Virus record (IMG/VR): IMGVR_UViG_3300033485_000006
Location: 25,402 to 89,401 of that record
DNA length: 64,000 nt
Source of the DNA: a virus
Lineage: Duplodnaviria > Heunggongvirae > Uroviricota > Caudoviricetes
Reading direction: 5' to 3' (one strand)
The position numbers and the translations under genes are program-made. Below the pieces are notes generated by a model. That model was not told the origin of the DNA and searched no databases. It saw only the letters and a list, made by a program, of their open reading frames with translations. The stretch's first letter is position 1. Every line of letters begins with the position of its first letter. Below are positions 13,643 through 64,000 of the stretch, piece by piece.

Positions 13643-14389
13643 TTAAGCTTTGGTTGCCCGTGGCTTATTCTTTGGTTTTTCTTTTACTGGAAGTTTTGAT
13701 TTAAGAATTGTTAATTGTTTCTCTAGGTATTCCACATGGTCAGCTAAATGTTCTGCCTCTGCTTCATCAACTAGTTTTTCTCGTTGTTCTTTCACAAGTG
13801 ACCAACGCGCCATAGTTTCATCTGCATCAAAGTATAGGTCACCACCTTTGATTACTTCTTCAATTTCATCGTTACTTAGAAAATACTTATAAGTTTCCTC
13901 AATTAATTTACGAGATTGTTTAAGAATAAACTCAACGGATGCTTTAGCTTCATGCATCTTACCACCACTACCAAAACTCACTGAATGTACCATAAACATA
14001 CTATGGTCTGTCATAATAATCTCATCACAGTTAAGAGCAATAATAGTAGCTGCACTCGCAGCTGTATCAGTAATAATTGCTGTGCATACTGCAGCTGTAC
14101 TATTAATACCAGTGATAATCATTTGAGCACCAGATAGGTAACCCCCACCATTATCAATAATAAAATTTATATTATCATTGTCAGTTAGTGCTAGTGCAAT
14201 TTCCATATACTCATGGTATTCACTAGAAGATTCAATACCTTCAGTTAAATAATAGTTTACTGTAATTGTTTCCCCAAAGATAACATATAGTCCTTTATTA
14301 TTACAACGTTCTCTTACCATAGCATCTGTATGGTAAGCCTCTAGTGTATTATTTACATCACCACCAAACATATTATCATGTTTACTCAT
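13643..14389 (-). CDS. ClpP/S14-family serine protease-like protein
   Basis: TDTAASAATIIALNCDE resembles the ClpP active-site Ser region (GxAASMG). A downstream His (MVHSV) and Gly-rich turns fit the ClpP fold. 248 aa. Confidence 0.55.
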   Translation of the reverse strand: MSKHDNMFGGDVNNTLEAYHTDAMVRERCNNKGLYVIFGETITVNYYLTEGIESSSEYHEYMEIALALTDNDNINFIIDNGGGYLSGAQMIITGINSTAAVCTAIITDTAASAATIIALNCDEIIMTDHSMFMVHSVSFGSGGKMHEAKASVEFILKQSRKLIEETYKYFLSNDEIEEVIKGGDLYFDADETMARWSLVKEQREKLVDEAEAEHLADHVEYLEKQLTILKSKLPVKEKPKNKPRATKA

Positions 14390-16782
14390 TTGTGTCCTTT
14401 TGAAAATATATTCTCTGCGAATTCTGTTAGTCTTCCTCTAACAACCTTAGTTAGTTTAGCACCAAATAATTTTACATTTGGGTATTCTTTCTTTAGCGCA
14501 CCAAGTAACACTGCAAGACTAGTAGTATACTTATTTAGGTACGCATTGTCAATCTGGCGACTAGACCCAATAGCGATTACCATACAACCCTCACCAATAC
14601 GTGTAAGTGCTGTTTGCGCTGAGCTAGGTGAGAAGTTTTGTGCCTCATCCATAATGATGATAGAGTCAGTTAACGTCCTTCCACGTAGTCCAAGAGTTGT
14701 TATTGGTTTGATATTATAGCTCTTCATGAGTTCTTCTAGTTTTTCCTCTACAGCTAACTCAAGGTCCTCTGCCTTCATCTTCTTATTACTGAGATGTTTT
14801 CTCACCATGATTCTCAGGGTATCATATAATGGTGCAAAGAATGGTGCGAACTTTTCATCAGAGTTATGCGTCACAATATAGTCATCTGTAAGATATAGGC
14901 CGTCCTGGTTGTCTAATGTAATACACTGCACCTCGTCATCACGAACATACTCTACACTTTTAATCATCCTTGGTCTACCAATGCGTGCTGCCTTGTAATT
15001 AGTAGCTTTACGTTGTAGCTTTGCTAAGTTAAAGTGTGGGGAGTCTATCTGAACAATATATTGAATATGGTTGCAGTTACATTGTATACCTAAAATCTCT
15101 GTTAAGCCGATTCTATCCCTTGTAGAAATTCTTGCAATACCGCCAATTGAGTGGACTAAGTCTTTAACATCACTGGATAATACACTAGATGAAGTGTAGA
15201 ATATTATCTCTCCTGATGGTCTAATAGAGCCATCAGAGTCTATCATACCCCTCAAAAGTTCCACTCTAGTATTCAGTGTAGCTACCTTGTAGCTTTCAGG
15301 TATAAATTTAGTTTCTGCTTTTTTATATTGAAGACCTAGCATAGTTAAGGCCTCTTTAAGCTTATTCGTGTGGCCTCTTCCATTAATACCTGATATAGTG
15401 TATAATACATTTTTATCTGAAGAACGGTTTATAGCGCACCCAATATCTTTTAAGGTACTAGCTATATTATTAATAATCTCTTCACTATCAGAATTTCCTA
15501 GAGCTAACCTGACGTGACTTCCTGATAAGCTACCATCTCCAATTAGTAATCCTAATAGGTATGGGTCAACTAAAGGCTCACTATAATCAAATTCTACTGG
15601 TAGGTTCTTCGGTAGTTTATGACGTAAAGCCCCCCATTTAGTAATAGTAGACATAATTTCTGCAGTGCTTCTAAGTTTTGTAACTTTATCTCTTGTAGTT
15701 TCCCATAAGTGGTCCTCAGAACATTCAGTTACGCCCCCATCGGTAGTAGTTACTCTATACACTTTTTTAGTGCCTTGTGGTGTTACATGCTTTACTGTTG
15801 AGTATTCCCCAGTATTAGTTATAACTAAGTCCCCAACAGCAATATCACCCATCACTACCCAACCAGTAGGTGTAAGTATCTTGGCAGTTAAAGGCTGTGG
15901 CCCAGGTAAAAAACCAACCTCTTCATTACGTTCTAAGTTATGAACAGTATTCCTAAGATAATATATACCAGAATACTTCTTAGCCCTTACAAGCTTCATA
16001 GCAGAAGATATAGCAGCAAAGGATTTACCTGAACCAGCCAAGGCATCACAAATAATAAAGTCATAATTCTGTGATAGTATAGCTGCTGAGTACACAAGTT
16101 GTTCTAGGTTCCGTGGGCTTGCCTCTTGCTTTCTTACTTCATCCTCATCAATAGACTCAAGTTTCCCATTGTTAACCAAGAATACCGATTGGTTACCATC
16201 AGTTGATGTGATATGGTATGCATAGTTTTCTTGCGTATGAGTTGGGTTAATACTAATAACTTCCTTAAGCTCCAACTCTTGAAACACTTCTGGGTCAACT
16301 GTTAGGTACACTAATGGTTCTATATTAATGTCCTCTTGCTCCCTAACAAAGTCTACCTTAATACCCCGAGTTAATGCAAGAAATCTACAGTTAGTATCAT
16401 TGCTAATAAATGTAACATCCATAGAGCTATTATGGATATCCTCGGCTATCTCAATAATTTTTAAGTCATTCTTCTCATCTTTATATTCTTTCTTAGAGAC
16501 TAACATAAGAGTTACTTCAAACTCGCCTGTATCATACTTAGCATGAATAGTGGTTCTATCTTCCTGTCTATCAACACTTACTAAACGTGCATCTGATAGC
16601 ATACCAGAGGTTCTCCTAGCATGAAAACCTATCTCTTCCATTAATGTTTTCTTAGAATCAAGTTCTTGTATAACAGTATCTGGAATAACTATTACCTTAC
16701 TACCAGAATTACTAAGTGTATATAGGTTAGTTGAATCTAATAGTAGTATATTTGTGTCCAACACTAGGTATTCATTTTGCAT
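14386..16782 (-). CDS. phoH: PIN-PhoH (YlaK-like) ATPase interrupted by an intein
   Basis: N-terminal PIN (LVLDTNILL), Walker A (DALAGSGKS) and PhoH motif GFLPG. An insert of about 340 aa carries two LAGLIDADG motifs and ends ...VTHN|S. The extein then resumes with DEKFAPFFAPLYD and Walker B (IIIMDEAQNF). Confidence 0.8.
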   Translation of the reverse strand: MQNEYLVLDTNILLLDSTNLYTLSNSGSKVIVIPDTVIQELDSKKTLMEEIGFHARRTSGMLSDARLVSVDRQEDRTTIHAKYDTGEFEVTLMLVSKKEYKDEKNDLKIIEIAEDIHNSSMDVTFISNDTNCRFLALTRGIKVDFVREQEDINIEPLVYLTVDPEVFQELELKEVISINPTHTQENYAYHITSTDGNQSVFLVNNGKLESIDEDEVRKQEASPRNLEQLVYSAAILSQNYDFIICDALAGSGKSFAAISSAMKLVRAKKYSGIYYLRNTVHNLERNEEVGFLPGPQPLTAKILTPTGWVVMGDIAVGDLVITNTGEYSTVKHVTPQGTKKVYRVTTTDGGVTECSEDHLWETTRDKVTKLRSTAEIMSTITKWGALRHKLPKNLPVEFDYSEPLVDPYLLGLLIGDGSLSGSHVRLALGNSDSEEIINNIASTLKDIGCAINRSSDKNVLYTISGINGRGHTNKLKEALTMLGLQYKKAETKFIPESYKVATLNTRVELLRGMIDSDGSIRPSGEIIFYTSSSVLSSDVKDLVHSIGGIARISTRDRIGLTEILGIQCNCNHIQYIVQIDSPHFNLAKLQRKATNYKAARIGRPRMIKSVEYVRDDEVQCITLDNQDGLYLTDDYIVTHNSDEKFAPFFAPLYDTLRIMVRKHLSNKKMKAEDLELAVEEKLEELMKSYNIKPITTLGLRGRTLTDSIIIMDEAQNFSPSSAQTALTRIGEGCMVIAIGSSRQIDNAYLNKYTTSLAVLLGALKKEYPNVKLFGAKLTKVVRGRLTEFAENIFSKGHK
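14863..15885 (-). mobile_element. intein with LAGLIDADG homing endonuclease domain inside the PhoH-like gene
   Basis: Hint N-block-like ILTPTGWVVMGDIAVGDLV. LAGLIDADG motifs LLGLLIGDGSL and LLRGMIDSDGSI about 100 aa apart. C-terminal splice block IVTHN followed by Ser. The upstream boundary is uncertain by a few codons. Confidence 0.7.
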
Positions 16783-50080: not shown

Positions 50081-50426
50081 TCTATTTTTCGTAAATCTTC
50101 CATGCGTAAGAAATGCTTACACCACCCATTTGGCATAAGAAAGTACCCCCATTCCATCTTTTACTTCATTATTCAGCATTTGTACAATTTGCCCCTTTGT
50201 AGCATATGTACTACTTATAATTACTTCAAAATACTTTTCAGTCATACGTTGTGTTAACATATTATCCCCTAATTTAATTTAATTATGTGTATACTTTGGG
50301 AAATACCTTTAGAAGCCATAACACGTCCTTACGACTTGAGGTACTCCATAAAGTATACTTATTACATAGCCATAGTTCATAGATAAATGGCGGTGGCATC
50401 AGTTGATCAAATTGACCCCACCAAGT

Positions 50427-50507
50427 GAAGACTGGTAGGATTTGAACCTACCACCATCCTCTGTTTCACGGGAGATAGCTCTGCCAGTATGAGTCTTACA
50501 GTCTTCA
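50427..50507 (-). tRNA. tRNA-like element (possibly degenerate tRNA)
   Basis: The minus strand has a perfect 7-bp acceptor pairing (GAAGACT/AGTCTTC) and a T-arm GTAGG-TTCAAAT-CCTAC. I could not place a convincing anticodon arm, and there is no encoded CCA. Confidence 0.3.
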
Positions 50508-55329: not shown

Positions 55330-55578
55330 TTAACGATTTCTTCTGGTGACATAATTCTCTCCTTGTTCGCAATGACGTATTACTTTATACACTTTTGATG
55401 GTGAGTAGTATCTACGGTAATTTGGGTACTTCCCAATAAAAGATGTTTTAACTAAAACATCAAAATCACTACTCCATACATGTCCATCAAGCGAAATTAA
55501 CTTATTGTAGATTTTTAAGACCTCTGTCTTATCTTCACCATCATCCTGTTGGTTAATCCTGTCCAATAGTTTGCCCAT
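55330..55578 (-). CDS. hypothetical protein (82 aa)
   Basis: ORF only. Confidence 0.35.
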   Translation of the reverse strand: MGKLLDRINQQDDGEDKTEVLKIYNKLISLDGHVWSSDFDVLVKTSFIGKYPNYRRYYSPSKVYKVIRHCEQGENYVTRRNR

Positions 55579-55674
55579 AATTCTCTCCTTGTTCGCAATG
55601 GTGGATATAGCAATAGCCTAGTACACAGTAAGCCATAATTACGGATAACGCCATAATTTCAAAGTTTACCATAC

Positions 55675-56196
55675 TTAGCATTTTACTAATTTAACCGTGT
55701 TCATCTGAAAATAGTGGTGGTCTGGCACTTGGTTTGCTAGGTCATTAGCAGTTCGCTTAAGCTTACTAATACGACCTTGAATCTCTTGTAGTTGTCTTTG
55801 AAATCTGAGGGGTATCTTTGAGCCGTGACCCTTGGAAATTCTCTCAGCTTGTTTCTTCATCACTAAAGTATGTAGTGGGATGAACTCTGTGCGGTACACG
55901 TAATCCGCCTCATCTTTAAGGGCTGTTGAAATATTAATAGAACCTTTATAAGCTCTGCTGTTATCTGTACGTACTGTGACCCCTGATTTAATAGTACCAC
56001 CGAATTTAAGCTTTTGGGCTGGTAGGGTGTGTGAGTATTCAAGCATTAAGCCATCACGAAAATCTTTATACATGGTTATCTCCTTGTTAATTAGGTAAAA
56101 TCCTAAAGTAAGCCAATAGTTGGTATCGGTGTACCTAGACGTAAGTATCCGTAGCAATATTATAGTAATATCAATATTGGGACTGTGAGGACGCAA
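55675..56196 (-). CDS. hypothetical protein (173 aa; true start probably internal Met)
   Basis: ORF only. Confidence 0.35.
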   Translation of the reverse strand: MRPHSPNIDITIILLRILTSRYTDTNYWLTLGFYLINKEITMYKDFRDGLMLEYSHTLPAQKLKFGGTIKSGVTVRTDNSRAYKGSINISTALKDEADYVYRTEFIPLHTLVMKKQAERISKGHGSKIPLRFQRQLQEIQGRISKLKRTANDLANQVPDHHYFQMNTVKLVKC

Positions 56197-56203
56197 GGGA
56201 AGT

Positions 56204-56386
56204 CTATTGACTTACTTTAGGATTTATTAATAGCCCTCTTATTTTCTCTGTGAGTGAAGCGCAGGTATCCACAAGGGATACCATGAGGGCTAAATTGTAG
56301 CGCATTGGTAACGTGAGATAATTCCAAGATTTGGCAGATTTTGCGTAAAAGTCCTTAATAGTCCTTAAGCTTAGTTTTAACGTCAC
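56204..56386 (-). CDS. hypothetical protein (60 aa)
   Basis: ORF only; doubtful. Confidence 0.2.
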   Translation of the reverse strand: MTLKLSLRTIKDFYAKSAKSWNYLTLPMRYNLALMVSLVDTCASLTEKIRGLLINPKVSQ

Positions 56387-56450
56387 GTTACCCGTTTGTT
56401 ATTTTTTATGGCTAACTATACCATTTTATTTTTTGTTATACCTTGTAACA

Positions 56451-56530
56451 CGCTTTTAGCTGGTGTGGTTGTTACCGTTCCGCTTTTAGCTGGTGTGGCT
56501 GTTACCGTTCCGCTTTTAGCTGGTGTGGTA
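56451..56530. repeat. 30-bp tandem repeat x2.7 (cgcttttagctggtgtggYtgttaccgttc)
   Basis: Direct reading: units at 56451-56480 and 56481-56510, partial at 56511-56530. Flanked by the short inverted repeat ccttgta / tacaagg. Confidence 0.9.
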
Positions 56531-56786
56531 CAAGGTAATAGAATATTCTATTGATTACTAAGTATAACGCCTTATGATTTTGATTATAGAAAATACTATA
56601 ACCGCCTCATAGGTAGTTTATAAATTTTTCTTACCTCTATTATTATAGCCTTAGAATAAACGATAAAACACGCCTATAATAACTATAATCTAGTTAATAA
56701 GTGTAACAATAACAATTTGAAAAAACACAGATTATAACTTATAATCTCATTAAGGGGATACTAATATCCCCCTATGAAACGATAAA

Positions 56787-57503
56787 TTAAGCCGTTTTAA
56801 GTTGCTTCGCCCGCTCCTTACTATTATCCAATGTCAATTGTAATTTTTTAATCATAACCTCAATCTCGTTATCGGTTGCACTTGCAACGAATTGCGCTGT
56901 TGCCTCTTCCATTAACTCATAGTAAGATTTAACAAACTCCTCTTCCGCTACTTTTTTCCCGTATTGTTTGGCGTAGGTAGTGATTTGCTCATTTAATAGG
57001 TCGTTATAAGTGATTTTAAAGGCTTCATCTTTTAAGCCTTTCAATACTTCACTTTTAAACACCAAAGACAACGACGTTTGAATAGTTGTTAATGCTCCTT
57101 CTTTGTCCACTTGTACAATATCGCTATCTTTATCGGCTTTATAACCAACAGTATCGCCTTCCGTTGCTTTAATCTTTGTGAGTAGCCCAACGATAGCGTG
57201 GGTATTGTTATACTCTACTTTATCAAACGCAAGGATTAGCCCTAAAGTATGATAGTTTTTAGCGGTTGTTAGAATGTTTTTTGCTACTTTCTTGTTATTC
57301 GCTGATGCTGAAAGTGTTTTTAGTTCGCTATCAATAGCCGTGACAATAGCCCCTTGTAACTGCTCGTTTGTTCCAGCTTCACGGATACGCTTCAACGTCT
57401 GACTAAAAAACAATGCTTTTGCATTATCATTTTTAACGATATTAGTAACTACCGCTGTAACCTCTTGTTTGATTGTCAAGTTAGTGCTTACTTCTGTTTT
57501 CAT
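56787..57503 (-). CDS. hypothetical protein (238 aa) in repeat-rich region
   Basis: ORF with locally higher GC and different codon flavour (gcg, ccg, cgc codons). No motif recognised. Confidence 0.45.
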   Translation of the reverse strand: MKTEVSTNLTIKQEVTAVVTNIVKNDNAKALFFSQTLKRIREAGTNEQLQGAIVTAIDSELKTLSASANNKKVAKNILTTAKNYHTLGLILAFDKVEYNNTHAIVGLLTKIKATEGDTVGYKADKDSDIVQVDKEGALTTIQTSLSLVFKSEVLKGLKDEAFKITYNDLLNEQITTYAKQYGKKVAEEEFVKSYYELMEEATAQFVASATDNEIEVMIKKLQLTLDNSKERAKQLKTA

Positions 57504-57869
57504 TTTATCCCCTTTTTGCGGTTAGTGTTCGCCAACGTATTAAGCTACCCTATCGGATAACTTTATAACCCCTTACTAATAAGAGGCAAAAAGTTATTTA
57601 TTGGTATAACTATACCCGTTTATTTCTTAATGTTTCCTTCGATTAGAGATTTAACTATTCTAAGAGTGATTAAAGCTCCACTCAATGACAGTGTTATAGT
57701 ATTAATAAGAGTTTGTCCGTTATCAATTACATTTAATAACGATAAGCAAAGGATAATGATTAAGATTATAGTTTTCATTGAGTAGCCTTTATTAGTTAAT
57801 TAATTTATGTTTGAAGTATGCCCACTTAATTATTAGAGTAACCTTCAGCTATTCAATTAATATTTTATC

Positions 57870-57929
57870 AGTCCTTCTATTAGTACGCCCTTAGTCCTTC
57901 TATCAGTACGCCCTTAGTCCTTCTTATCG
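57870..57929. repeat. 23-bp tandem repeat x2.6 (agtccttctatYagtacgccctt)
   Basis: Direct reading: 57870-57892, 57893-57915, partial to 57929. Confidence 0.85.
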
Positions 57930-58115
57930 TTCATTTTATACGGTTTACCGTATGTTATGTACTAAATAACGTATAAATTTTTTTTAGTAATTGTTTTCTC
58001 GTTTACTTTTTGCGCTCCTCTTGTTTGTTTGTAGTTTTGTGGATGGTTATTTTTAGGTGTGTTTTGGGTTGATTTGATACTCATTATCATATAAAGTAAT
58101 TAAACGTTTTCAAAT

Positions 58116-58232
58116 AGTACACTATGAGTACACTATGAGTACACTATGAGTACACTATGAGTACACTATGAGTACACTATGAGTACACTATGAGTACACT
58201 ATGAGTACACTATGAGTACACTATGAGTACAC
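58116..58232. repeat. 11-bp tandem repeat x10.6 (agtacactatg)
   Basis: Direct reading: ten perfect units from 58116 to 58225 plus a partial agtacac. Confidence 0.95.
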
Positions 58233-58489
58233 CCTTAACCGCTTAGTAGTGTACGCACGTACTACCTGAATTAACCTTTGGTTAACCTTAAGTCACTAGT
58301 AGAAATTATAGGCAACTAATTGTTTATTTATTAATCATGCCCTTAGAATCGTTTTAAGGTACTTCTAGCGCACGAATAGTTTTTAGTAGGTTTACCCCTT
58401 GACTACTACGAGAACGCAGTTAGTTACATTTAGTAACACTTACCTTAAGCTAATCTTAAGTTTCAGCTATTGGTACACCAAGAGTAACT

Positions 58490-58850
58490 AATTGTTTTAC
58501 TTAAGGTGACTCAAAGGTAAACTATGAGTGTACTATGAGTCTATCGGAAGTACGTCCAGCAGGGCGTTTAGTGACCTAAGGTGTACTTAAGGAATACTAT
58601 GAGTGAGATTTATGGGTTTTACTTAGAGTTTACTTAAGGTTTACTACTAGTTTACTTAAGGTTTGCTTGTGGGTAGGCTAGGGGGAGGTTAAGGTAGACT
58701 TAAGGTTGGTGTGGGTGGCGCCCATACGTAGAAATTTTCGGGGTAATTTTGAAAGTGCCTAGGGTGCATTAGAGGTATAGTAGAAGTTTACTTAAGGATT
58801 GATTATAGGTTGCACTAGAAGTTTACTTAAGTATATAGCAGAAGTTTACT
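58490..58850. repeat. dispersed short-repeat cluster: about 8 copies of TTACTTAAGG (palindromic core CTTAAG) and several CTATGAG motifs
   Basis: agtttacttaagg is seen at about 58627, 58649, 58782, 58819 and 58842, with variants at about 58495, 58581 and 58690. actatgag is seen at 58521, 58531 and 58596. Confidence 0.7.
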
Positions 58851-58853
58851 TAA

Positions 58854-58919
58854 GGATGCTATGAGGTTTCTTAAAGGATGCTATGAGGTTTCTTAAAGGA
58901 TGCTATGAGGTTTCTTAAA
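58854..58919. repeat. 22-bp tandem repeat x3 (ggatgctatgaggtttcttaaa)
   Basis: Direct reading: 58854-58875, 58876-58897, 58898-58919. Confidence 0.9.
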
Positions 58920-58926
58920 GGAGACC

Positions 58927-60171
58927 CTAGACTCGCTCATGGAGTCCCTTAGGGTTCTGGAAGGGGTTTAGCCTATTGGATAAGGCTGCGGTTATTAGGG
59001 GAGGTCTAGGGATTTGGGTAGGCTGGAAGTTATCTATGGTGTAACCGACAGTCTCCATTAGGTTTCTATGGAGTAGTGCATGGCGGAATAGCTTTGAGTG
59101 AATCCTGCGTACCCTCTTTAACTCTGATACTATATAGGTAGAGGAGTAGATTTTATTGTTATACTCTTGGAATTCCCATGTCGATGGGTCCCCTTTAAGG
59201 ATATTTAGATATGCTATAACTGTCCTAGGGTAATATTTAAGGGTTGCCTTGGGCAACTTATAGTGTTCTATAATGGAATTGACGATGTATTCAACTACTT
59301 CTGAGCATTCTTCATGGCCTTTAATACGAGAAAATGTGGTATATCTAGTATAATACTTGGGCATTTTAGTACCATTTGGTGGTGGAACATCAAGTAATTT
59401 ACGTACAAATGGTAGTTTTGTGGCTATCATGACACCATTTGGTAGGTACAAGTACTCCCTAGTGGCTATAAGTATGCTATAATGATACGCATACCTACGC
59501 ATATACTCCCTTTGGTGTGATAGACTACTAGAAGAGCACTTATTACCCATTGGTATAATCATTGCAAGCTCATGAAGGTCATTTAAGTCCTGTAGAAATA
59601 TCCCATTGACTTTAGTTAACTTAAATTTCCCATGATTGAATGGTTGGTATGGTAACTGGTAGTTTACCTTGGGTGGGAGTTGTGCGTATGTAAAGTTGCT
59701 ATGCCTAAGTTCTAGTGATGGTAGGTAAGTTACTAATTCGAACTTCTCCTTATCTGAGTACACCCTTGGGTTTCCCTGATGGTCTACTAGTAGCGCTAAC
59801 TCTAAGCAACTACATCGCTGTAACTGCTGCGGATGATAGGTACTTAGATTATTACTTAGGGTTAATTCCTTGGATAGCCTAGGTATATGTCTAAACATAT
59901 ATAAATAGTCTCCGCATAGGGTGCATCTAATAGCTTCCCTATGCTCTGGTTGTAACTTAGCCTTATGATTTGGGTACATGGATGTATAATATGGAACCCT
60001 TAGCTGTGTAGGGAGTACTTCTGGTATATAGATATTACTATAGGCTGCTATGGATATGGACATCTTCACAGAAGACCTAATAATTTTCCTATAGTCATCA
60101 TCTAGTCTGTTTAGGTAGAACCCCTGCGCATGATTAGTCTTCCCATAGTCGTATAAGTCTTCTACTGTCAT
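58927..60171 (-). CDS. hypothetical protein (414 aa) in compositionally distinct segment
   Basis: Long ORF. Locally GC-richer DNA with many tagg/ctag strings. Cys pairs (CTLCGDY, RCSC); a weak box-II-like HxxRHxxL stretch near the C-terminus, not convincing. Function unknown. Confidence 0.5.
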   Translation of the reverse strand: MTVEDLYDYGKTNHAQGFYLNRLDDDYRKIIRSSVKMSISIAAYSNIYIPEVLPTQLRVPYYTSMYPNHKAKLQPEHREAIRCTLCGDYLYMFRHIPRLSKELTLSNNLSTYHPQQLQRCSCLELALLVDHQGNPRVYSDKEKFELVTYLPSLELRHSNFTYAQLPPKVNYQLPYQPFNHGKFKLTKVNGIFLQDLNDLHELAMIIPMGNKCSSSSLSHQREYMRRYAYHYSILIATREYLYLPNGVMIATKLPFVRKLLDVPPPNGTKMPKYYTRYTTFSRIKGHEECSEVVEYIVNSIIEHYKLPKATLKYYPRTVIAYLNILKGDPSTWEFQEYNNKIYSSTYIVSELKRVRRIHSKLFRHALLHRNLMETVGYTIDNFQPTQIPRPPLITAALSNRLNPFQNPKGLHERV

Positions 60172-60530
60172 TAAATCCTACCTATAGAATAGTTCAGGGA
60201 ATCTATCTCAGCCTGTGAGTTTGCCCTGAGTATCAAAATAGTCTGTACCTTTTGTGTATTGAATAACTTAAAGTGATCACGGTGTATTAGTTTATTCAGG
60301 GTTGCTGTGGATGTTCCAAGAAATTTAGCTAGTGAATGGACAGACCAGTACTTTGCGTTAGCCTTTAGGAATTGCCTAAGGTCTTTCTTCAGTGGTATTA
60401 GTTCAGGAGGTGGGTTATCTAGGCATAACTCAATATTCTCTGGGTCATAATCAGGAATGTCAAACTGCGGAACTTGTAGTTCAGAGTTCCCAATAAATGC
60501 TTCAGTGTAATTAAGAGCATTATCGAACAT
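60171..60530 (-). CDS. HTH-containing hypothetical protein (119 aa)
   Basis: SVHSLAKFLGTSTATLNKLIHR is HTH-like. Start overlaps the stop of the 414 aa gene (ATGA). Confidence 0.4.
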   Translation of the reverse strand: MFDNALNYTEAFIGNSELQVPQFDIPDYDPENIELCLDNPPPELIPLKKDLRQFLKANAKYWSVHSLAKFLGTSTATLNKLIHRDHFKLFNTQKVQTILILRANSQAEIDSLNYSIGRI

Positions 60531-60759
60531 TCTTATGCCCTACTATGGTATACTCACCCTTAGTCGTAGTTATTACTACTGGACCAATATATGGGATAGT
60601 ATAGTATTGCCCAGTGCACACATAACCCTTCATATCATAGGAATCTGTTTGGAAATCTACTGGCGTACCGTTAGAAGTGACTGATAGTATATTATTATTT
60701 CGACTTGTTAGCACTCTTATATGGTCTGAGTATCTGTCTATTAGAATTATTGGTTGCAA
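60520..60759 (-). CDS. hypothetical protein (79 aa)
   Basis: ORF only. Confidence 0.35.
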   Translation of the reverse strand: MQPIILIDRYSDHIRVLTSRNNNILSVTSNGTPVDFQTDSYDMKGYVCTGQYYTIPYIGPVVITTTKGEYTIVGHKNVR

Positions 60760-60905
60760 TGTAGTCCTTTTATAGAGCCTAGGAGGCCTTTAGTTGTTAA
60801 TATAGGTTAGGAGTCGACTAGAAGTAGTTTAGGTCTTCTAGGTACTTTAGAATGCTTCTGGTGTACTACTAGAGTTACTCTAGGTTAAACCCTGCGCACT
60901 ACTCA

Positions 60906-61367
60906 TTATGACATAACCTGATTTAGAATACTTACATAGATATTATCAGCTTCCTGTGGCTTCCTAGACTTCTTCTCTGAGGTTAGGAGGTCAGCATATG
61001 CCTTAACAACCTCTAGAGTATCCTTACGTGTGCTCTCTCCAGCGGAGTCAACTTCAGATATCCTATCATCTATGACTTCCTCAAACCAACCCTTGAGTTT
61101 ATCTATACGTGCCTGGTCTAGTAACTCTAAGAGTTGCTCTACATGCTCCTTCACATCCTTGCGTTTAAGAATTTCTATAATAGTAGAGGTTGGTATGGCT
61201 AGGCGCAGAGATATATCAGCTGGACTAGAACCTTTTACCCTTAGTTCTATTATATCTTGTTCTAATGGTTTGAATAGGTTTAGACTAGGGAGGATCTGTA
61301 TTGATTCTGGTAATTCTATAAGTTCTGGTGGGTCTAATTCCTCCAGAAAGTCTCTTGCTTTAGACAT
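60906..61367 (-). CDS. HTH DNA-binding protein (153 aa; possible regulator or small-terminase-like)
   Basis: HTH-like SPADISLRLAIPTSTIIEIL with an acidic N-terminus. It is on the opposite strand to the terminase large subunit, so a TerS assignment is weak. Confidence 0.3.
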   Translation of the reverse strand: MSKARDFLEELDPPELIELPESIQILPSLNLFKPLEQDIIELRVKGSSPADISLRLAIPTSTIIEILKRKDVKEHVEQLLELLDQARIDKLKGWFEEVIDDRISEVDSAGESTRKDTLEVVKAYADLLTSEKKSRKPQEADNIYVSILNQVMS

Positions 61368-61989
61368 GTAGTGGTCCTTTAATATTAATAGTTAGTTGGG
61401 TCGGTGTAGGAATTAACCCAAGGGCATAAGCTCTTAGTGTACTATAGTTTAGGCCAAGAGCTTTACTAGCAATACTAATAGAGGCGTAGGTAGTACCATT
61501 GATAATCACAGGAATACCCTTAGTCTGTTGTATGCCTCTATTAGTAATCTCACCTAGTATACTCTGTGCTTTCCCTAGGCAGATATCACACACCTTATGT
61601 TTCTTTGAGGAGAACTTGGTAGTATCAGTAGTTCCATGGCATTTATTGCATACTTGAGGCTTTTCCTTTAGTAGACTGAAAGGACCAACTATTTTAGCAT
61701 TAGGATTCGATTTAAGAACTAAGTAACATCTCTTACATATTAAGGAGTTACCATGGAAGTCGAATAGTTCACTCTGGGTCTTAGCTTTTAGTCCGCAGTG
61801 TTTACATACCCGAATTGGTAGGTTAACTCCTAATATATCTCTGAGTTTAATAAAACCTAGGATTACACCTAGTTCCCTACGTCTTTCCTTAGTTGTGTTA
61901 GGAGACTTATATTCTTTCATAAGTTTACGTCTCTCAATCTTATCAACTCTTGATTCTTCTCTTAGCTTTTCTTTTATTCTATTATTCAA
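61360..61989 (-). CDS. zinc-finger protein with NUMOD1-like C-terminal HTH (homing-endonuclease-related)
   Basis: Two Cys-His clusters (CKHCG...FDFHG...CKRCY and CNKCHG...KKHKVCDIC) resembling degenerate HNH/zinc ribbons. C-terminal INGTTYASISIASKALGLNYSTLRAYALG resembles NUMOD1. Confidence 0.35.
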   Translation of the reverse strand: MNNRIKEKLREESRVDKIERRKLMKEYKSPNTTKERRRELGVILGFIKLRDILGVNLPIRVCKHCGLKAKTQSELFDFHGNSLICKRCYLVLKSNPNAKIVGPFSLLKEKPQVCNKCHGTTDTTKFSSKKHKVCDICLGKAQSILGEITNRGIQQTKGIPVIINGTTYASISIASKALGLNYSTLRAYALGLIPTPTQLTINIKGPLHV

Positions 61990-62741: not shown

Positions 62742-64000
62742 ATGGTAATTAATAATGAGATATCTACTTATCAGGAAATAAGTAGTAGGGTTAAGCTTAA
62801 TAAGGTTTGGGAGTTAGTTAAAGCTACTCCGCATTCTGGTCAAGCCCCAATTGTATACGACTTCGATAATAATGACGCAGTTAACTGTTACGTTATTGTA
62901 TTAGGTCGTCGTTCTGGTAAAAGTATGAGTACATCATTAATAGTACTTAGAGAAATGCTCATACCAAATAGTAATACAATACTACTAACTCCAGCTTATA
63001 AGAACTCAGATATTATGTTTAAAGAAGTTCTAAAACATGTTCAAGGATTAAAACTTCCAGTCAAAGCGATTAACAAGAATCAGTTTACAATAGAATTAGA
63101 GAATGGTGCGAAGTTTACTTCTGTTACCCAGACTAACTATGAGTCAGCTCTTGGTTCACGTCTTAGTCTACTCGTAGTTGATGAAACACAATCTATAACT
63201 GATATTAAAAGTATCTATGAAGAGATTCTTGGTCCGATGATGTTGGACTTCGGTGTTAAAGATAATGGTGTTCTATACGCTAGAGCAGTTTTCCTTGGTA
63301 CACCTCGTGGTGTTGGTACAGCATTCCATGCACTATACCTGAAAGAATTATCAAATAGCAACTGGAAGTCGTATAATAGCCCATCCAGCTGTAATCCATT
63401 ATTACCTAGAGTATATTTGGACCAACAGAAAGAATTACTACCAGACCATGTGTATAGACAAGAACTATTATCTGAATGGTTATCTAAAGGTAGTGGGGTA
63501 TTTCATGCGTTTGACCCTGAAGTAAATCTATATGACCCTGAAGAATTAATATTCGCTAAAGACTCAAGATTTATTATTGGACAAGACTATGGTCATACCG
63601 ATAGCACAGCTTCAGTATTTATCTATATAGATAATGCTGGTAACTACTATGTACATGATACATATCAAGAAGCTGCAAAACCAACTAAAGAACATGTTAA
63701 GTCATTCTTGAGTATGGAAAATAGAAATCCTGGTGAGCTAGAAGAAAGATATGGTGACCCATCAGCTGCTCAGATGCTATTGGATTTAAGAAGCCAGTAT
63801 GACTATGAAGTGTCTAAGGGTGTTAATAAGATTGCCCCTGGATTAGCTTGTATTAATGATCTACTTGCTCCTCAAGGTTATAATAAGAAGCCTAAACTAT
63901 ACATTAATAAAAATCTTACGGAATTACGAAGACAAGTCCAATCTGTTACGTATAAAGAAAATAGTAATGGGACCGACCCATTCAATAAAGACCCAGAGGG
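62742..64000 (+). CDS. terminase large subunit (partial, continues beyond window)
   Basis: Manual translation from ATG 62742 (RBS AAAAGG): MVINNEISTYQEI...VIVLGRRSGKSMS (Walker A) ... LSLLVVDETQ (Walker B). No stop before the window end. Confidence 0.75.
   Translation, partial: MVINNEISTYQEISSRVKLNKVWELVKATPHSGQAPIVYDFDNNDAVNCYVIVLGRRSGKSMSTSLIVLREMLIPNSNTILLTPAYKNSDIMFKEVLKHVQGLKLPVKAINKNQFTIELENGAKFTSVTQTNYESALGSRLSLLVVDETQSITDIKSIYEEILGPMMLDFGVKDNGVLYARAVFLGTPRGVGTAFHALYLKELSNSNWKSYNSPSSCNPLLPRVYLDQQKELLPDHVYRQELLSEWLSKGSGVFHAFDPEVNLYDPEELIFAKDSRFIIGQDYGHTDSTASVFIYIDNAGNYYVHDTYQEAAKPTKEHVKSFLSMENRNPGELEERYGDPSAAQMLLDLRSQYDYEVSKGVNKIAPGLACINDLLAPQGYNKKPKLYINKNLTELRRQVQSVTYKENSNGTDPFNKDPE

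Follow-up and report, generated by a model that had tools for sequence, protein, structure and literature searches.

We examined a gene-poor, repeat-dense region of an uncultured siphovirus with an 88.5-kb genome, situated at positions 56387-58926 of a 64-kb (64,000-nt) stretch of that genome, which we call the window and to which all positions refer unless another sequence is named. Its main part is a gap of 0.84 kb (58091-58926), accompanied by smaller gaps below it, that lies between a terminase-proximal module and the early genes. Comparison with related genomes shows that this gap is a conserved cis-acting DNA region, probably bound by proteins, and three layers can be told apart in it: a single-copy core that evolves slowly, a short motif found clade-wide in many copies of the same orientation, and tandem arrays that evolve fast. 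Beyond this, our preferred reading takes the gap as protein-binding DNA that lies upstream of the early genes at a terminal-repeat boundary or concatemer junction; it would place physical genome ends here, and we consider it quite possible, albeit short of probable. The original prediction, made from the letters alone, had offered a replication origin, a packaging or terminal-repeat site, or a regulator's binding-site array; a conserved cis-acting region fits all three, and it is the terminal-repeat and packaging option that has gained most.

Conserved core, shared motifs and changing arrays

Five related metagenomic genomes, found through homologues of the large terminase subunit (TerL), were available for comparison (L005, from IMG/VR; L008; L009/L010; L011/L012; L013/L014); their TerL proteins are 56-74% identical, and L006 is a further related fragment of 5 kb. 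In the window, an island of six genes (encoding proteins of 118, 209, 153, 79, 119, and 414 amino acids [aa]) lies divergently between TerL and the repeat region. All five relatives possess the same island, followed by a gene-free gap of 0.8 to 2 kb just downstream of a gene of ~400 aa.

The best-conserved part of the gap is a non-coding core on the minus strand at 58671-58789, which reads AGGCACTTTCAAAA-N7-9-(G)AAATTTCTA-N~20-ACCTTAAGTAnACCTTAAC-CCTCCCCC and holds the only GAAAATTTC of the window. In BLASTN comparisons between gaps, ~90 nt of it proved common to the window, L005, L008, L011, and L013, with 66-79% identity over 50-134 nt, and it is thereby more conserved than the flanking proteins, which are 21-55% identical. 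The core occurs once in every locus and shows no conserved RNA fold (consensus, -0.3 kcal/mol), both of which argue that it acts as a site at the DNA level. The second layer is visible in the hexamer CTTAAG, which is enriched 5- to 26-fold in five of the six gaps (window plus five relatives) and which in the window reaches 13.2 copies per kb in 58091-58926 versus 0.51 per kb in the remainder.

Using Tandem Repeats Finder (TRF) on the whole window, we obtained four tandem arrays with a score of at least 100, all inside 56451-58922, compared with a best score of 78 elsewhere. These are a 30-bp x2.6 array (56451-56529, score 151), a 23-bp x2.4 array upstream of a 52-aa open reading frame (ORF) (57870-57924, score 103; unit AAGGACTAAGGGCGTACTGATAG on the minus strand), a perfect 11-bp x10.6 array with copies 100% identical (58116-58232, score 234; AGTACACTATG on the plus strand, CATAGTGTACT on the minus strand), and a 22-bp x3.6 array on the minus strand (58844-58922, score 142) that begins 4 nt past the stop codon of the 414-aa gene. 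TRF also returned a degenerate 11-bp x4.6 array at 58618-58668. Hence, the four arrays had been seen correctly from the start, as had the 10.6 copies of the 11-mer, but the remaining copy numbers (2.7, 2.6, and 3) and the proposed start of the 22-bp array (58854) had to be revised. The gene-poor character of the region was likewise borne out, with 57504-58926 being the window's longest stretch without a real ORF; the 238-aa ORF thought to be the only one of the whole region exists but is joined by the 52-aa ORF at 57620-57778. No comparable arrays were found in the window's other intergenic gaps.

The window's arrays are made of the same two short motifs that also occur dispersed. Motif A, CCTTAAGTAAAC on the minus strand (TTACTTAAGG on the plus strand), forms a family at 58490-58860 in which all copies (five exact, three with one mismatch, and several looser) share one orientation and flank the core on both sides. 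Counted as TTACTTAAGG on the plus strand, the five exact and three one-mismatch copies fall within 58497-58855, in agreement with the roughly eight palindromic-core copies initially noticed, and the window holds one further exact copy. With up to one mismatch allowed, TTACTTAAGG has 20 matches in the window against 9.8 +/- 3.0 in shuffled sequence, a count that none of 100 shuffles reached. ACTATGAG has 20 matches against 3.5 +/- 1.8 expected, 13 of them within 58121-58603. Both words concentrate at 58.1-58.9 kb (~0.8 kb), nearly all on the plus strand. Of motif B (CTCATAG, gene-sense strand), the gap has 16 copies; several CTATGAG motifs had been reported there before. The 11-bp x10.6 array is motif B at 11-bp spacing, three isolated B copies on the minus strand are interleaved with A motifs at 58528-58609, and each unit of the 22-bp array, read on the minus strand, combines one A-type motif (CCTTTAAGAAAC) with one B-type motif (CTCATAGCAT).

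Three ideas about the repeats were set aside. CRISPR can be dismissed, as it was at the outset, given that the units run head to tail, contiguous and without spacers. A helical phasing of the array periods was rejected as well: weak chance arrays elsewhere in the window likewise have periods that cluster at 10-12 and 21-23 bp, so this is no evidence of design. Lastly, stop-codon reassignment as the cause of the gap was discarded on finding all three stop codons on the plus strand of the repeats, a check made by reading only, without a recoded ORF scan or a three-frame check of the minus strand.

The third layer changes from genome to genome. Tandem arrays are present in the gaps of all five relatives, with unit sequences unrelated between genomes: L008 has two perfect arrays, one of 33 bp x2.6 directly against the stop codon of the ~400-aa gene and one of 22 bp x3.3; L013 has a perfect 23 bp x3.1 array, again abutting that stop codon, and one of 45 bp x4.3; L011 has two arrays of 11 bp; L009 has 12 bp x3; and L005 has a perfect 10 bp x7.8 array plus one of 11 bp with at least seven copies. 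L009 and L010, although from different samples, are 99.9-100% identical, and their difference amounts to exactly one unit of a 43/44-bp array in a second gap of the early region (L010 2810-2910), which indicates that such arrays change copy number quickly.

This volatility raises the question of whether the region might be a mostly neutral, slippage-prone spacer, i.e., young arrays of the variable-number tandem repeat type in dispensable DNA, with only the core and a few motifs being functional. The perfect or near-perfect arrays with units unrelated between relatives, the single-unit difference between L009 and L010, and the occurrence of the same period classes among weak chance arrays would all be expected of such a spacer. 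Nonetheless, every clade member carries arrays at the same positions, in three genomes (window, L008, and L013) directly against the stop codon of the ~400-aa gene; moreover, the arrays of the window are built of two motifs that also occur dispersed and have no counterpart in its other gaps. A neutral spacer is for these reasons very unlikely in our view.

Comparison with the genome ends of T5, phi 3, and T7

Our reading of the gap as a concatemer junction or terminal-repeat boundary is based on its position by the terminase module, the T5-type TerL, synteny with T5 and Vibrio phage phi 3, and its likeness to the ends of T5, phi 3, and T7. The terminase gene had been placed a few kb away, and indeed TerL starts at 62756 on the plus strand, followed by the genes for portal, S78 protease, HK97-type capsid, tail tube, and tape measure. 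The order TerL-portal-protease-capsid is that of T5, and all closest cultured relatives of this TerL are T5-like Demerecviridae (24-26% identity). The distance from the TerL start to the left boundary of the right terminal repeat is 3.6 kb in T5 and 3.0 kb in phi 3, which compares with 3.8 kb from TerL to the gap here; likewise, divergently transcribed genes stand between TerL and the boundary in T5, in phi 3 (one gene), and in the phage studied here.

In T5 (AY587007), the inner end of the 10,139-bp terminal repeat lies in an untranslated stretch of 1.2 kb, Repeat Region 3, which is a candidate for the injection-stop signal (iss) (10.1101/866236). By our analysis, Repeat Region 3 contains nine dispersed copies of a 15-bp repeat (DRD) in the same orientation, a 23-bp x4.1 array, and G-rich stretches, and the last 400 bp of the phi 3 terminal repeat contain a perfect 30-bp x4.2 array together with a DRD-like 17-bp x4.7 array. 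The gap resembles these boundaries in being an untranslated repeat stretch (>1 kb in T5, ~0.8-2 kb in this clade) of direct repeats in one orientation plus arrays, in having one G/T-rich strand, and in setting a family-wide short motif, as DRD is for T5 and phi 3, alongside lineage-specific arrays. One distinction is that Repeat Region 3 is found at the inner boundary of the T5 repeat, while TerL synteny aligns the gap with the outer (left) one.

The T7 concatemer junction is laid out in the same way. There, the heptamers CCTAAGG and CCTAAAG, all oriented alike, stand inside the 160-bp repeat and on both sides of it (the flanking arrays being SRR and SRL) and form arrays with a 13-bp period, and the promoters A1 to A3 and the early genes follow the junction. 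Both phages present the last gene of the right end, motifs in the same orientation, a unique centre, more motifs together with arrays of 11- to 13-bp period, sigma-70 promoters (candidates in the phage studied here), and early genes, and in both the motifs read on the C-rich sense strand of the early genes (CCTAAGG/CCTAAAG in T7, CCTTAAG/CCTTTAAG here). On the other hand, T7 belongs to another phage family with another terminase type, a T7-type RNA polymerase and phiOL/phiOR promoters are lacking here, and the present region is larger (0.8 kb versus ~0.5 kb) and carries long perfect arrays. To our knowledge, the function of the T7 repeats has not been established (Dunn and Studier 1983; Chung and Hinkle 1990).

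A further comparison is with the packaging site of phage P1. Like P1 pac, in which clusters of a palindromic hexamer flank the cleavage region, the gap has the palindromic hexamer CTTAAG clustered on both sides of a unique conserved segment. Unlike P1 pac, its hexamer holds no Dam site, the terminase is of the T5 and not the P1 type, and the region is several times larger.

Should the gap indeed be a junction, its layers could divide the labour as follows. The conserved core would be recognized by conserved machinery, that is, the T5-type terminase or the small putative DNA-binding partners encoded next door; the A motifs (CCTTAAGTAAAC), all in the same orientation on either side of the core, would load a clade-wide DNA-binding protein; and on the lineage-specific perfect arrays (the 11-mer and 22-mer), cooperative binding by fast-evolving proteins would nucleate. 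With the gap end leading as the DNA enters the cell, the adjacent promoter and the small early genes would be the first to arrive. Protein binding as such, the identity of the binders, and most of all the location of physical genome ends at the gap are what we infer.

Several observations weigh against a genome end at this place. TerL is only 24-26% identical to its T5-like homologues, which makes any inference of the packaging mode weak. The gene resembling a small terminase subunit, that of the 153-aa protein, lies on the strand opposite TerL, owes its annotation to weak matches, and gave no match when compared with phages by tblastn. The core has no BLASTN match to the ends of T5, phi 3, or phiR2-01, similarity in sequence to Repeat Region 3 of T5 or to DRD is lacking, and unlike T5 the gap contains neither paired DnaA boxes nor the 131-bp or any other long inverted repeat. 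Transcription runs co-directionally through the junction, as opposed to converging on the repeat region in T5, and nine nearby ORFs (118, 209, 153, 79, 119, 414, 52, 238, and 173 aa) are without PHROG or Pfam matches to A1, A2, or dmp. While five independent contigs end inside the gap (among them L002, L004, L005, and L014), the breaks are accounted for by repeats that exceed the k-mer length of the assembler: L002, a Logan contig, begins in the 11-bp array with one 31-mer of repeat, and where this can be checked the contigs stop after exactly one assembler k-mer of repeat, for which reason we rejected them as evidence of termini. Assembly also merges the copies of a terminal repeat. The other boundary of a repeat could be marked by another copy of the core or by another repeat region, and neither turned up in the sequences examined. 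A weak lead in favour of an end is a word shared with T5: (G)AAATTTCT, which forms the core's invariant centre, recurs within the left terminal repeat of T5, 8 nt short of its right end. The resemblance is short, AT-rich, post hoc, and possibly due to chance.

In coordinates, this T5 word, GAAAATTTC, occupies L015 10123-10131. A GAAATTTC is found in T5 at L016 986-993, where 29 nt separate it from the right terminal repeat (RTR), outside the left end of the latter. Another GAAATTTC, close to the island's far edge, was considered and dropped; it is present in the window and L005 and not in the other relatives.

Elements along the gene-sense strand and the 414-aa protein

Read along the gene-sense (minus) strand, the stop codon of the 414-aa gene is followed after 4 nt by ~3.5 units of the 22-bp repeat, three copies of CCTTAAGTAAACTTCT, and the core (58789 to 58671). 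Past the core come ~10 more A-type copies interleaved with the three B copies, and then the 11-bp B array. A candidate sigma-70-like promoter, TTGAAA-16-TATGAT (58086-58113, minus strand), follows 3 bp downstream of this array and points toward the early genes; it, as well as a second candidate, TTAATA-18-TATAAT (58305-58334, minus strand), was called by consensus match only. From the first candidate, a G-poor, CA-rich leader leads to a small hairpin, ATACGGTAAACCGTAT (57938-57953, minus strand), that closes it ~130 nt downstream; a similar ATACGGGAAACTGTAT occupies the equivalent place in L005.

Beyond the hairpin lie the 23-bp array and the hydrophobic 52-aa ORF (57620-57778, minus strand), called as a gene in two independent assemblies and preceded by a purine run, AAAGG, that could serve as its ribosome-binding site. 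The next ORF, of 238 aa (56787-57503, minus strand), has no assigned function and is poorly conserved, with 22% identity to a 251-aa protein of L008; a scan of IMG/VR with it returned no match. At 15 nt past its stop codon, a GC-rich hairpin, GGGGATA/TATCCCC (56754-56772, minus strand; -16.6 kcal/mol for a 41-nt segment), looks like a terminator, albeit one without a clean T-run. The 30-bp array comes last, bracketed within 56439-56552 by a 9-bp inverted repeat (TACCTTGTA/TACAAGGTA) and followed by a 16-bp palindrome (AATAGAATATTCTATT); at the equivalent intergenic position, L005 has a perfect 11-bp array of at least seven copies.

Two side observations concern the surroundings of the 30-bp array. 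Each of its units (56451-56529, plus strand) holds GCTGGTGT, one base off the E. coli Chi octamer GCTGGTGG, in the orientation that would be met by an exonuclease coming from the 58-kb side. In addition, a 22-nt inverted repeat (56098-56119/56204-56225), 95% complementary with its arms 84 nt apart, is located upstream of the start of a 132-aa gene (56075).

The promoter candidates bring up the possibility that the gap is an early-gene regulatory region and nothing else, combining promoters with operator arrays for cooperative repressors or activators and having no role at a genome end. Well-known precedents are parC of plasmid R1, where ten 11-bp iterons bound by ParR flank a promoter, and the heptad arrays of the omega repressor. 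The ten perfect 11-bp units adjoining a promoter-like site recall this arrangement, with the promoter candidate at 3 bp from the 11-mer array facing small non-conserved ORFs. In L005, a 16-bp sequence resembling an operator stands in three copies ahead of a strong, near-consensus promoter match (TTGACT-17-TATAAT); furthermore, three putative helix-turn-helix (HTH) proteins are encoded next door, and both the early genes and the array units are lineage-specific. However, no gene of the ParM/ParR or ribbon-helix-helix type was recognized nearby, and a genome of the virulent type has no obvious need for partition. Sigma-70-like promoters were not found in the gaps of L008, L011, and L013, and the L005 array is ~250 bp from its promoter. 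The core, as the best-conserved element, is not promoter-like and sits 0.6 kb upstream of the first promoter candidate, and ~0.8-2 kb of repeats is far above the usual need of operators. On balance, a purely regulatory region seems rather unlikely to us.

A replication origin with iterons had been among the first suggestions. In a lytic origin of this type, the 22-bp array and the dispersed motifs would be iterons, the co-evolving 414-aa protein would perhaps be the initiator, and an AT-rich unwinding segment would be adjacent. Iteron origins such as lambda ori or the oriR of P1, F, and R6K also have direct repeats of ~22 bp by a gene that diverges together with the repeats; they comprise at least three direct repeats of ~17-22 bp, as does the 22-bp x3.6 array. 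This array abuts the 3' end of a fast-evolving conserved gene, with arrays of different sequence in the same place in relatives, and no other initiator candidate was recognized among the replication genes.

Apart from this array, the iteron interpretation found nothing to sustain it. The arrays lie downstream of the gene instead of within or upstream of it; no recognizable initiator fold, DnaA boxes, or AT-rich unwinding element accompanies them, in contrast to iteron origins. Among the gaps, TTWTNCACA is absent from that of the window and found in that of L011 alone (two copies), and the GC content of the window gap, 0.367 as compared with ~0.35 for the genome, means that it is not AT-rich. 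The window's cumulative GC-skew minimum does fall at 58 kb, but in all six genomes the skew reversal is limited to the ~400-aa gene and the gap, the sense strand of which is C-rich and G-poor throughout; we therefore regard it as a local compositional feature as opposed to a replication switch. By comparison, the replication origins of T5 map to the centre of its genome and not to the repeat region (10.1101/866236). Taken together, we regard an origin in the gap as unlikely.

As several arrays lie just upstream and downstream of a promoter candidate, they are possibly transcribed, which raises the idea of a non-coding RNA locus, e.g., a ToxI-like mimic of a type III antitoxin or a protein sponge. 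Blower and colleagues reportedly described, in 2012, phage-borne tandem repeats of 30-45 nt that mimic type III antitoxins, and the inverted repeat bracketing the 30-bp array would suit such an RNA. Yet a search of 55500-59100 gave no Rfam match even at E<=1, the absence of conserved secondary structure in the core speaks against it, and units of 11 bp are too short for known antitoxin RNAs; we consider this option highly improbable.

The protein encoded directly upstream of the gap (58927-60171, minus strand) is a 414-aa orphan with CxxC...CxC motifs that is found clade-wide and evolves fast. A full scan of 1.84 billion proteins with a hidden Markov model yielded ~33 representatives of the family; a word-indexed search had recovered the protein and one relative, and another was gained with a profile built from seven family members. 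Neither tblastn against phages nor a scan of IMG/VR gave a match. Its AlphaFold model is confident (predicted local distance difference test [pLDDT], 81.7; 38.5 when built from three sequences), and searches of Pfam, PDB, and BFVD revealed no domain match and no structural neighbour. The protein shows no sequence or fold similarity to any Rep, initiator, or known DNA-binding protein, which also speaks against its being the initiator of an origin. Consequently, its earlier description as an HTH protein is unsupported, and of the two proteins so described only that of 119 aa retains a hint of the fold, at a sub-threshold level. A more speculative version of the genome-end reading, which strikes us as quite unlikely, would have the perfect lineage-specific arrays be fast co-evolving sites of this 414-aa zinc protein, which together with the core would form a novel nucleoprotein complex at the genome end.

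Genome context and significance

In reverse orientation, the window corresponds to positions 20709-84708 of the 88,497-bp metagenomic contig k141_261293 (ENA ERZ27267356). A megablast comparison of the region with 50,697 phage records gave no match, nor did a scan of GTDB genomes, which hence provided no prophage or host clue; a scan of JGI metagenomes with TerL returned only a 3.3-kb fragment. The phage encodes a family-A DNA polymerase ~36% identical to the enzymes of N4-like phages as well as DnaB, a primase, ribonucleotide reductase, RIIA/RIIB, SbcCD, an RNA ligase, and PhoH, and these genes, from polymerase through PhoH, are all on the minus strand (2483 to 62508). Below the repeat region, there are many small, poorly conserved ORFs resembling early genes.

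Within the six-gene island, three small putative DNA-binding proteins, with a 79-aa ORF among them, are encoded at 60171-61989 (minus strand), and all of their domain matches are below curated cutoffs. The 119-aa protein has a weak sub-threshold HTH match; the 153-aa protein matches a PHROG of small terminase subunits (1.3e-6), has a weak precomputed T5_Terminase_small match and a sub-threshold HTH; and the 209-aa protein has a Zn-ribbon and a weak sub-threshold HTH of the MerR/NUMOD1 type. Judged by these features, the three are candidate binders of the motifs in the gap. The 118-aa gene of the island, divergent from TerL, is bracketed by a 69-nt inverted repeat (62084-62152/62548-62616; 78% complementary), the right arm of which lies in the divergent intergenic region adjoining TerL.

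Three further features of the genome were noted in passing. An HNH endonuclease gene lies between the portal and prohead protease genes, past the right end of the window (L003 3872-4399); its absence from the same position in L008, L009, L011, and L013 suggests a mobile insertion. In the PhoH-like protein of 798 aa (14386-16782, minus strand), residues ~299-641 match PHROGs of terminase, primase, helicase, and endonuclease, a pattern typical of what would be an intein or an inserted homing element. Finally, a tRNA-like element at ~50426-50506 (minus strand), in a 0.9-kb stretch without long ORFs, shows a 7-bp acceptor-type pairing (GAAGACT/AGTCTTC) and a canonical T-arm (GGTAGGTTCAAATCCTACC), although neither ARAGORN nor Rfam called it.

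Untranslated repeat regions of genome ends or junctions are a known type of phage element, to which this one would belong, and it is not categorically new; what is new is a version unrelated in sequence, in an undescribed clade related to T5. Although such regions have been known from the ends of T5 and T7 DNA for ~40 years, it is still unsettled what part they play in injection stop, end formation, and packaging. The clade described here provides an independent version that separates a conserved core from copy-variable arrays and in this way shows which pieces to delete or footprint. If termini lie here, comparison across the clade could define what a T5-type terminase recognizes; if they do not, the gap would represent a new kind of conserved regulatory or origin element by an orphan protein family. 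And were the arrays to prove the sites of the 414-aa protein, the complex could be, e.g., a cap or pause device that, in a phage not belonging to the Demerecviridae, protects the end or makes DNA entry a two-step process.

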